A stretch of 8,692 nt of DNA from a virus (lineage: Duplodnaviria; Heunggongvirae; Uroviricota; Caudoviricetes): the IMG/VR virus record IMGVR_UViG_2778261591_000007, one strand, 5' to 3'. Position numbers and translations under genes: made by a program. Shown in pieces: positions 1,426 to 4,356 of the stretch; the first letter of the stretch is position 1, and every line of letters starts with the position of its first letter. Below the pieces are notes generated by a model. That model was given only the letters and a program-made list of their open reading frames with translations. It was not told where the DNA came from and did not search any database.

Positions 1426-1499
1426 GTCGTTAATTCCTATGCGTGGTTTTACGATACCGAAGCCCTGACTGTTCCCGCAGTTGGGGCTTCACTGTTTTG
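1424..1499 (+). ncRNA. sar: Candidate sar-like antisense RNA covering the ant ribosome-binding site and start codon
   Basis: Near-consensus promoter (1391..1419) followed about 35 nt later by a long hairpin (1459..1490; 13-bp stem with two G-U pairs, 6-nt loop) and a U-rich tail (TTTT at 1495..1498, then GATTTCTTTG). Predicted transcript about 70 nt, complementary to the ant SD and start. Matches the known P22 sar arrangement (68-69 nt antisense RNA in the arc-ant region). Confidence 0.4.
1459..1499 (+). terminator. Intrinsic terminator hairpin for the candidate sar RNA
   Basis: GAAGCCCTGACTG / CAGTTGGGGCTTC stem around loop TTCCCG, followed by ACTGTTTTGATTTC on the plus strand. The U-tract is separated from the stem by 4 nt, so efficiency is uncertain. 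Confidence 0.4.
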
Positions 1500-2498: not shown

Positions 2499-2684
2499 TC
2501 AACAGCTTCCGCGTACCTGAGTAATTCTGTCGCGGATTTGCTTCTTACGGTGATTTAAGCTGGAGAGCTTGGCTTCTGCTTCTGATATTTGCGCATCAAG
2601 ATCTTTAAGCTCAAGATCTGAAAGTCGCTGGTCAAGCAGGGTTTGATTCAACTCAATGTTGTTCAGACGTTCTTCTATGGTCAT
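2499..2684 (-). CDS. Small hypothetical coiled-coil protein (61 aa)
   Basis: ATG 2684..2682 preceded by a perfect AAGGAG at 7-nt spacing. Product is a heptad-like, charged, Leu-rich helix (…LLDQRLSDLELKDLDAQISEAEAKLSSL…). No family recognised. Expression is doubtful because a terminator hairpin lies immediately upstream. Confidence 0.3.
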   Translation of the reverse strand: MTIEERLNNIELNQTLLDQRLSDLELKDLDAQISEAEAKLSSLNHRKKQIRDRITQVRGSC

Positions 2685-2696
2685 GATTACTCCTTA

Positions 2697-2726
2697 TAAA
2701 AAACCCACCTGACGGTGGGTTTTATT
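2697..2726. terminator. Bidirectional rho-independent terminator
   Basis: Stem CCCACC (2704..2709) / GGTGGG (2714..2719) with loop TGAC, flanked by an A-run (2698..2703) and T-run (2720..2723). Reads as a terminator on both strands: it ends the minus-strand operon 2746..3592 and plus-strand transcripts coming from mnt. Confidence 0.55.
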
Positions 2727-2745
2727 AGTGCTTGTATAGGTTGAA

Positions 2746-3144
2746 CTATCTATCAAGCCATATAACAAAAAATGTCGATCCAAGACGATAACCAACCATG
2801 GCTTTCAAATCATCAAATCTAAAAGCCAAGAAATGATCTACGTCTTCCGTTATATGACTGGGGATACCTGCTTTAATTGCACCCCTTGCAATCTTCTCAA
2901 ATCCAAGCTTATGCCTACCTTGCTGCTTAATATCTGCCCATGTTAGTTGACTTAATCTGTATAATTTATCAGCTAAGCCAGCTTTCTCATCTTTTTGGCA
3001 TTTCGTTATGCAGTGAGAGCTTTGGATGTAACAGAATGAAAATTTCGGTTTCTTTTGATCTGAATTCCCCCCTGACTGCGGCCCTAACTTTAACTTACCT
3101 GTAGATTCAGCAGGGGGGATAATCCTTTTAGATTTTCTTGCCAT
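2746..3144 (-). CDS. Hypothetical basic protein (132 aa), downstream partner of the Panacea-like gene; candidate toxin/effector
   Basis: ATG 3144..3142 lies 4 nt after the upstream gene's stop (TAACGAGATG), suggesting translational coupling. Product has a Lys/Arg-rich, probably disordered N-terminus (MARKSKRIIPPAESTGKLKLGPQSGGNSDQKKPKFSF), a Cys/His cluster (CYIQSSHCITKC) and a C-terminus ending …HFLAFRFDDLKAMVGYRLGSTFFVIWLDR. No family recognised. The longer track ORF (to 3219) starts at TTG and overlaps the upstream gene by 71 nt, so the ATG start is preferred. Confidence 0.5.
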   Translation of the reverse strand: MARKSKRIIPPAESTGKLKLGPQSGGNSDQKKPKFSFCYIQSSHCITKCQKDEKAGLADKLYRLSQLTWADIKQQGRHKLGFEKIARGAIKAGIPSHITEDVDHFLAFRFDDLKAMVGYRLGSTFFVIWLDR

Positions 3145-3148
3145 CTCG

Positions 3149-3592
3149 TTAGTTAATCCGAGTTGCAAAGTACTCTGCCATCTCCTTAGAACTAATTTCA
3201 GAACCACCAACACCCTCAATATAGTTTGATCTCCATGGTGACTCTTCGTGTGTCATGTTCCTCAGTTTCCAGGCAGAAAATTGCCCAAAAACATCCCAGA
3301 CTTCTTCTAATAGCTCTAACTGTTCTTCGCTGAATTTTTCAGCATCAAAAGACTCTGGAGAAGGGATAGCACCATTACCATATTGTTTATAACGGTGATA
3401 AAGCTCAGGGACAACAGGGCCATGCATCCAAGCTTCCATCTTATTCTGAAAAAGAGGCTCGCCAAGCAACGCCAATGAAAAACCCTGAGCATAGTAAACA
3501 AGCTTTTGTAATTTTAAATTAGAGATTGCGTCACCGCTATCCTCGTCACACCGCGACAGGAAGTAGTCGGCGACATCAAAACAAGTAAGCAT
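3149..3592 (-). CDS. Panacea-domain (DUF4065, SocA/GepA-like 'phage-associated protein') antitoxin-type protein
   Basis: Start taken as ATG 3592..3590 with GGAGG 7 nt upstream (the track start is a GTG two codons earlier). The segment DVADYFL…ISNLKLQKLVYYAQGFSLALLGEPLFQNKMEAWMHGPVVPELYHRY matches the DUF4065/Panacea signature as I recall it (T/N-KLQKLLYYAQ…G.PLF…EAW.YGPV.P.VY). Confidence 0.7.
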   Translation of the reverse strand: MLTCFDVADYFLSRCDEDSGDAISNLKLQKLVYYAQGFSLALLGEPLFQNKMEAWMHGPVVPELYHRYKQYGNGAIPSPESFDAEKFSEEQLELLEEVWDVFGQFSAWKLRNMTHEESPWRSNYIEGVGGSEISSKEMAEYFATRIN

Positions 3593-3966
3593 GAACACAC
3601 CTCCATCTTGATAGCCACAGCTAAGTATCCAACTATGTCAAATGTCATTTAATACTATAACAAAGCTATCAGCAATCCTTCGGAGGCTAACTTACAACCA
3701 CTTTAGCGACATGTTTAAACCATTACGTTTCACATTTACTGCATTTTCGCCGAAGTTACCTATAAGGTAATGTCACATTTCCTGCAAGTTTCATGCAATG
3801 TTGAAAAGTGAGCTATTCACTTTTCTATGACACCAAACACCAAAAATAGCACTTTTTGCTAAATCATTCGTCCAAGTTGTGGATGGTTTGTCGTTGACAC
3901 ATTTTCACACACCGCTCCACCAATAAAGTATCATCTGGTATCCTGCTCAAAACTAAGGAGGTTAGT
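3593..3966. promoter_or_regulatory. AT-rich divergent intergenic region with repeated motifs (promoters for the Panacea operon and the secreted-protein gene)
   Basis: 374 bp with no ORF. Direct repeats TCACATTTaCTGCA (3730..3743) and TCACATTTcCTGCA (3772..3785) flank an inverted repeat TTACC-tataa-GGTAA (3756..3770). Related TGTCA/CACATTT elements at about 3635..3650 and 3894..3910. TTGACA at 3894..3899 but no clean -10 at 17-bp spacing. Confidence 0.3.
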
Positions 3967-4356
3967 GTGAAGCGATTTCTTGCTGCTATGTTCTTATTCA
4001 TATCTTTTGGGGCTACAGCAGAGTGCTGGGTCGTTGGAGATATGCGCGGAATAAGCTATTCAGAACGAAATAATTTCCATCCGGAAGAAGATGGTTTTAG
4101 TGGAACATTCATCATTAAGACAAGCGGTGAAGATGCTAGCATCACATATTCTGGGACAGATGCGGGCGGCATGGCTTACAAAGTATTGTCTAAAAACTCC
4201 ATCATAGGAATCGGCGCGAATGGCGAAACTCAACGCGTTATCGACTCATGGGTAATACATCCTACTGGAACAGTTTTAATGTCAAAAACCATTTCCGGTT
4301 ATGGAAATATGGATTCAACCAAAGCTTTTGTTGGAAAAGTAAAAAGAAAATGTTAG
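3967..4356 (+). CDS. Secreted (periplasmic) hypothetical protein, 129 aa
   Basis: GTG start with AAGGAGG 5 nt upstream. N-terminal signal peptide MKRFLAAMFLFISFGATA with AXA cleavage (ATA|E). Mature part is beta-rich and Gly/Ser/Thr-rich, with Cys at both ends (AEC… and …KRKC). Convergent with gp16. No family recognised. Confidence 0.55.
   Translation: MKRFLAAMFLFISFGATAECWVVGDMRGISYSERNNFHPEEDGFSGTFIIKTSGEDASITYSGTDAGGMAYKVLSKNSIIGIGANGETQRVIDSWVIHPTGTVLMSKTISGYGNMDSTKAFVGKVKRKC

Follow-up and report, generated by a model that had tools for sequence, protein, structure and literature searches.

A pair of coupled minus-strand genes in a P22-like (Lederbergvirus) prophage of E. coli is best explained as a decaying copy of a PanA-PanT type II toxin-antitoxin-like cassette of toxin cluster T1, carried as prophage cargo, in which panA is intact and the partner gene, which encodes a putative RNase, is truncated by an amber codon. 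This reading is probable, and the locus is thus probably a worn copy of a known module and not a working toxin-antitoxin or defence system. The pair lies in a window of 8,692 bp, the whole stretch of DNA analysed here, which is part of the prophage on the E. coli draft-genome contig NJUJ01000088.1 (GCA_002459835.1). The original prediction, made from the letters of the window, was of a candidate toxin-antitoxin or defence module, and it holds in so far as the genes form a toxin-antitoxin-like coupled cassette with a conserved partner, but this copy is truncated and so unlikely to be functional. The features of the window that bear on this reading are:

1427..1493, plus strand: sar antisense RNA, lying between arc and ant (Rfam RF00262, 76.6 bits, E 4e-15)
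2499..2684, minus strand: orf61, which comes directly after the cassette terminator and has a strong ribosome-binding site; its product is a coiled-coil protein of 61 aa (phrog_7586)
2681..3972, minus strand: extent of the mobile cassette, being the stretch common to phage phiv205-1 by megablast, with flanks that differ on both sides
2698..2723, minus strand: Rho-independent terminator hairpin, AAAACCCACC-GTCA-GGTGGGTTTTTT, directly after the ancestral double stop and identical in EC.P3
2725..2745, minus strand: in-frame remnant of the ancestral 3' end of panT, FNLYKH plus TAA, read directly from the sequence
2746..2748, minus strand: premature amber stop TAG in place of ancestral GAG (Glu133), which is GAG in Salmonella phage vB_SemP_Emek (Emek), phiv205-1 and EC.P3 by DNA alignment
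2746..3144, minus strand: panT (cluster T1), truncated, encoding a putative RNase of RelE fold, 132 aa instead of 139
3149..3592, minus strand: panA, ATG at 3592 with GGAGG 8 nt upstream, encoding an intact stand-alone Panacea/DUF4065 protein of 147 aa
3593..3966, minus strand: non-coding DNA upstream of panA that moves together with the cassette, containing two TCACATTTnCTGCA direct repeats and an inverted repeat
3730-3743 and 3773-3786: the direct repeats, TCACATTT(A/C)CTGCA, two copies 43 nt apart
3803..3811 and 3817..3825: arms of a perfect 9-nt inverted repeat, GAAAAGTGA/TCACTTTTC
3967..4356, plus strand: orf129, with a signal-peptide-like N-terminus (MKRFLAAMFLFISFGATAEC...), matching phrog_2651; its annotation in Emek notes a similarity to Sf6 gene 38

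The two minus-strand genes are arranged as first described, with both reading frames present and the TAA stop of panA (3149..3151) followed by 4 nt (CGAG) and then by the ATG of the partner at 3144. The Panacea/DUF4065 identity proposed for the first gene is borne out by a match of residues 28-120 to PF13274 SocA_Panacea (88.5 bits versus a cut-off of 25.7, E 7.6e-25). PanA also matches phrog_1281 (E 1.5e-60), and its exact sequence occurs on about 974 contigs, where the protein is named as SocA family or Panacea domain-containing. A terminator was predicted to follow the pair and was recovered as a GC-rich hairpin with a T-run at about 2698..2723 (dG -16.6 kcal/mol, z -3.17); a terminator is likewise annotated in Emek, and a simple consensus scanner did not flag the one at 2698..2723. 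The upstream intergenic region had been called AT-rich, which is correct in direction but modest in degree, with a GC content in 3593..3966 of 0.38 versus 0.44 for the whole window. A consensus scan of the minus strand detected no sigma-70 promoter upstream of panA, and the repeats in this region may serve panA or the divergent orf129 as operator or promoter elements. We also considered a functional RNA in the conserved ~380-nt upstream region and found it unsupported, as the region is not conserved in Morganella and is only partly conserved in another prophage; a mosaic recombination boundary fits the conservation better.

The partner, which the original prediction had left unclassifiable, can be placed by its RelE/YoeB/YafQ-type (BECR) fold, by homology to the C-terminal RNase domain of NsnC and by membership of the published PanT cluster T1. 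Its AF2 model (pLDDT 86.9, core near 95) has the helices packed on an antiparallel beta-sheet that are typical of the RelE-type fold, and the top matches from the structure search, for which Foldseek E-values were not significant (0.12 or worse), include the PDB entries HigB deltaH92, HigB Y91A and YafQ H87Q. Foldseek against the BFVD viral structures returned nothing meaningful, and searches of Pfam, NCBIfam and PDB with both the single sequence and a 115-sequence profile returned no sequence match, matches to Caskin-2 being discarded as noise (E 1.5). The family profile gave no alignment by hhalign with E. coli YafQ and YoeB, and the partner showed no profile match to a curated RelE, YoeB, HigB or YafQ family. 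Because there is no match to these toxins at the sequence level, the RNase assignment rests on the fold and on the NsnC profile match.

In that comparison, the PADLOC NsnC profile PDLC03891 matched the window partner with an E of 1.7e-5 and, with E values down to 1e-11, 114 of the 115 members of its family; the matched profile positions, 178-280 of 284, correspond to the C-terminal domain. In a 2025 analysis of Menshen, an anti-phage system, this PB-BECR1 domain was assigned to the Barnase/EndoU/Colicin/RelE superfamily, placed closest to YafQ with an H-R-H triad, and put forward as the effector with RNase activity (PMC12065111). The partner family comprises 1607 clusters at 50% identity (E <= 1e-3), nearly all of about 135-145 aa, with representatives in Proteobacteria, Desulfovibrionales, Cyanobacteria and Acidobacteria, and both it and panA are under purifying selection (dN 0.1-0.6, with synonymous sites saturated or nearly so). 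Residues conserved across the family are, in window numbering, H78, E83, K84, R109, Y119, R120, D131 and a C-terminal F-x-L-Y-x-H (H79, E84, R110, Y120, R121, D132, Y138 and H140 in the numbering of P0005). Extreme C-terminal His and Tyr residues are catalytic in RelE-fold RNases, and the HigB deltaH92, HigB Y91A and YafQ H87Q entries all target extreme C-terminal residues. Drawing on conservation and topology, we propose that H78, R109 and H139 of the partner would be equivalent to the H-R-H triad of the NsnC domain, and that E83, R109, H139 and Y137 resemble Glu46, Arg65, His83 and Tyr84 of YoeB. From the fold, the NsnC homology and the conservation of these residues taken together, we infer that the partner is an RNase, possibly a ribosome-dependent one.

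The locus is already known, as a member of the published PanAT cluster T1 that is near-identical to a tested example. Emek is 99.2-99.3% identical to the window in DNA across the region, and its pair (YP_006560565.1 / YP_006560566.1) is listed as a predicted PanAT of toxin cluster T1 in the order A|T (Kurata et al. 2022, Dataset S1, PMC8832971); among the PanA-associated toxin clusters in the published table, T1 carries the first number (PMC8832971). Since YP_006560566.1 belongs to T1 and is identical over the 132 residues of the window product, the window partner belongs to T1 as well. For the Emek pair, a predicted 'mRNase', the toxin was scored 'not toxic' in E. coli and the antitoxin 'n/a' (Kurata et al., Table S1, PMC8832971); a homologue from E. 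coli MOD1 had the same outcome, 'not toxic' (PMC8832971), and a T1 member from Clostridium cadaveris was toxic and unrescued by its own PanA (PMC8832971). The original prediction held that a partner harmless when expressed alone would speak against a toxin-antitoxin or defence module, and a result of this kind is in print for the Emek protein, which is the window protein plus the lost tail, although in the construct tested 22 non-native residues extended its N-terminus. The non-toxicity of both over-expressed full-length proteins, that of Emek and that of E. coli MOD1, is a counterpoint to our preferred explanation, and even the intact partner may not be a conventional toxin. Our search of the literature found no biochemical data on any T1 member, and the supplements of Ernits et al. 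2023 contain no entry for the pair.

The start codon bears on how these toxicity results are read. Public annotations of the partner use at least four starts, giving products of 132/139, 140/147, 153/160 and 161 aa. Of these starts, the ATG at 3144 alone fits the family alignment, in which the start Met is invariant in 115 homologues and aligns with this ATG, and the longer forms overlap the 3' end of panA (3145..3219, minus strand) by 20-62 nt. The Emek entry is 161 aa long, with a start 22 codons upstream of ATG 3144, and for E. coli MOD1 the 20-nt overlap of the entry with panA is consistent with the TTG-start form of 147 aa and its 8 extra residues. Judged against the alignment, the published constructs of the Emek lineage were likely mis-started, with non-native N-terminal extensions of 22 aa for Emek and an inferred 8 aa for MOD1.

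The second gene of the cassette is conserved with the first, the pairing being kept across phyla. A partner directly followed a Panacea gene in every context that we fetched, and the PanA-then-partner order, with gaps of 2-35 nt, is kept in Solidesulfovibrio, a cyanobacterium, Aeromonas, Morganella and a metagenomic siphovirus-like prophage. Among 5426 complete E. coli genomes the cassette is present in 82: in 48 of these the allele is near-identical, and in the other 34 it is a second one, with 80-90% DNA identity. When the window is compared with phage EC.P3, the upstream ~380 nt (3593..3975) are about 97% identical and the last ~50 nt of panT together with the terminator (2681..2799) are identical, whereas the coding regions have diverged (70% protein identity for PanA and 55% for PanT), a pattern suggesting that coding regions were swapped between conserved flanks.

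The cassette lies where prophage cargo had been proposed, in the moron region between gene 16 and mnt, and the related P22-like genome of Emek carries the pair in the same genomic slot. The order of genes in the prophage part is 14, 7, 20 and 16 (injection proteins), orf129 (plus strand), the panA pair (minus strand), orf61, and the mnt-like gene, arc, sar antisense RNA and ant, which puts the pair between gene 16 and mnt/arc/ant. P22 has sieA, convergent with gene 16, and orf59a in the gene 16-mnt interval; the window has orf129 at the exact place and in the orientation of sieA, then the panA pair, then orf61. The earlier placement of the pair in the P22 sieA slot is therefore right broadly, for the interval as a whole, but the exact position and orientation of sieA are held by orf129 (3967..4356, plus strand). 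This gene is convergent with gene 16, is swapped for a different 106-aa gene in two related contigs, and may be the true exclusion-type cargo of the slot. On the other side of the pair, orf61 occurs without the cassette in phage Kapi1 and is thus an independent moron, and the match to sar RNA confirms an intact P22-type immI region beside the cassette; it was the sole Rfam match in the window, with none inside the cassette.

Neighbouring genes form a pattern of their own. PanA-T1 cassettes repeatedly adjoin antirepressor or immI-like genes (Bro-N/ORF6C/AntA, pRha/P22_AR_C, Arc-Arc-Ant), and this adjacency is seen across unrelated prophage types, namely P22-like, P2-like and siphovirus-like. 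It could reflect either a shared moron hotspot or a functional link.

An alternative that we consider unlikely is that the intact cassette is a trigger-dependent anti-phage module, acting by abortive infection or exclusion, in which the RNase stays inert until Panacea senses infection, the window then carrying a null allele. An inert RNase would account for harmless over-expression of the full-length protein in E. coli, the core of the partner is homologous to the Menshen effector domain, and a sensory role for Panacea has been hypothesised by Ernits et al. The cassette also recurs in the accessory slots of P22-like, P2-like and siphovirus-like prophages and beside a type I R-M system, and the occurrence of two divergent alleles between conserved flanks in E. 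coli prophages suggests cassette swapping. However, non-toxicity could equally be explained by the 8- and 22-aa N-terminal extensions of the tested constructs, there is no report of a defence phenotype, no PADLOC model covers the PanA-partner pair beyond the NsnC domain match, and we found no study of a PanA-T1 pair against phages in the literature searched. If this alternative were true, PanA-T1 would be a widespread and so far unrecognised prophage-borne defence module with a Menshen-type effector domain, and amber-type alleles would be natural knock-outs marking the cost of carriage.

We favour the decaying toxin-antitoxin-like cassette, and the evidence of decay lies at the 3' end of panT. 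The original prediction missed that the partner reading frame stops early at 2746: the TAG is premature with respect to all close relatives and the ancestral frame ends at 2725, its stop lying 21 nt beyond the TAG of the window. Where close relatives read ...WLDR-E-FNLYKH-stop, the window reads ...WLDR-TAG-FNLYKH-TAA, and its product ends at R132 with the loss of the last 7 residues, including Tyr137 and His139. Homologues end in ...W-x-D-R-x-F-x-L-Y-x-H, with the terminal Y and H present in 113 of 115, and at least 90% of them conserve each of the tail residues F, L, Y and H; the only plain truncation among the 115 is that of the window. The window copy lacks the full putative catalytic set, which includes the C-terminal Tyr and His. 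Because the nonsense mutation removes near-invariant C-terminal residues, the window module probably does not work as a toxin-antitoxin or defence unit; the 132-aa product is predicted to be inactive or strongly attenuated, with panA intact.

A sequencing error was ruled out as the source of the TAG, since the identical truncated protein is found in three other assemblies (GCA_012221485.1 and two Logan assemblies), two of which are on a different backbone: beyond 3969, on the right, their sequence departs from that of the window, and both gene 16 and the gene in the sieA slot are different. This brings the amber allele to four assemblies and at least two prophage backbones. Full-length panT alleles, by comparison, occur on thousands of contigs, and among close copies in complete E. 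coli genomes none is identical to window positions 2697..2797, the best being 99.0% identical with one mismatch. Further apparently damaged panT alleles were seen in E. coli assemblies, comprising WP_244583468.1, of 134 aa and ending in ...WLDREF, and two frameshifted forms from Logan assemblies. These alleles hint that the C-terminus, or the toxin as a whole, has been lost repeatedly, with panA kept.

That the window module is instead a fully functional toxin-antitoxin or defence pair with an active 132-aa product, as first proposed, is very improbable. Both reading frames are open and coupled, the RelE-like core (residues ~33-131) is kept, and the amber allele was not immediately purged, as its persistence in four assemblies on two backbones indicates; given this persistence, the 132-aa product may retain some residual function. 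Yet the missing tail holds the four residues conserved in at least 90% of the 115 homologues, the in-frame remnant and the position of the terminator place the ancestral stop 21 nt further on, every close copy in complete E. coli genomes differs from the window by at least one mismatch across 2697..2797, full-length proteins are encoded on thousands of contigs, and even the full-length protein is non-toxic. It is likewise very improbable that the partner is no enzyme or toxin and is an RNA- or ribosome-binding regulator or other phage accessory protein merely co-occurring with PanA, since the two published non-toxic results and the absence of a direct sequence match to characterised RNases, which would agree with such a role, are set against invariant H, E, K, R, Y, R, D, Y and H residues on a RelE fold that are typical of active BECR RNases, a toxic T1 member in Clostridium cadaveris and a strict association with PanA across phyla.

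As a decaying PanA-PanT cassette, then, the locus would be accessory cargo placed between gene 16 and immI (mnt/arc/ant) of an E. coli P22-like prophage. In an intact cassette the first gene would encode a Panacea protein that stands alone, and the second gene, translationally coupled to the first, a protein of about 139 aa, for which an N-terminus that is basic and disordered and a BECR core of RelE/YoeB/YafQ type are predicted. The likely RNase active site would comprise His78, Glu83, Arg109, Tyr119/Arg120, Asp131 and the C-terminal Tyr137-x-His139. Direct toxin neutralisation by stand-alone Panacea domains has been described (PMC10440598), and if PanA acts as these antitoxins do, it would bind its partner and neutralise it directly. 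In the window, a single G-to-T change converts codon 133 to TAG and removes the last seven residues, so that the RNase would be dead or strongly attenuated, while panA is intact.

As a discovery the locus carries little weight, since the pair is catalogued, has failed a published toxicity test and is broken in the window copy. Three modest points appear to be new: the assignment of T1 to a RelE/YafQ-like BECR fold with homology to the Menshen effector domain, a link made in neither published paper; the likely mis-started constructs behind the published 'not toxic' result; and the natural amber allele of panT. Natural C-terminal truncations single out the Tyr-x-His tail as the first site for mutation.

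Compared with known systems, the window pair is not a Menshen system. The conserved H...R...H pattern of the T1 family is consistent with the published H-R-H triad of NsnC, but NsnC has an N-terminal inactive-PIN (inPIN) domain, whereas the partner, a protein of only 132-140 aa, matches the C-terminal third of the profile only. Menshen further includes genes for NsnA (ParB-DUF262) and NsnB (ABC ATPase), neither of which is in the window, where the partner stands alone with PanA, and the Menshen paper makes no mention of Panacea (PMC12065111). The pair is also not SocAB of Caulobacter crescentus, the founding Panacea-domain system: PanA has a SocA-like Panacea domain in common with it, but falls far under the SocA equivalog cut-off (NCBIfam NF047745, 70.5 versus 190 bits), and the window partner is unrelated to SocB. 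With the RelE, YoeB, YafQ and HigB toxins the partner has no detectable sequence-profile relationship, and it alone has an extra disordered basic N-terminus of about 30 residues. Those toxins use RelB, YefM, DinJ and HigA antitoxins, whereas the window partner is paired with Panacea, and toxicity was absent where tested in the window/Emek lineage. With P22 sieA the pair shares the gene 16/mnt accessory region of a Lederbergvirus genome, but a tblastn search with P22 SieA found no similarity anywhere in the window (best E 1.9), and the spot of sieA is taken by orf129 and not by the PanAT genes. The closest counterpart is the Emek PanAT, whose PanA is the same as that of the window except for its annotated start, whose partner is identical over residues 1-132, and whose genomic slot and terminator are those of the window. 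The two differ in that the annotated start of the Emek partner, also used in the toxicity-tested construct, lies 22 codons before the family-conserved start, and in that the codon reading TAG in the window is GAG in Emek, which leaves the Emek protein with the EFNLYKH tail.
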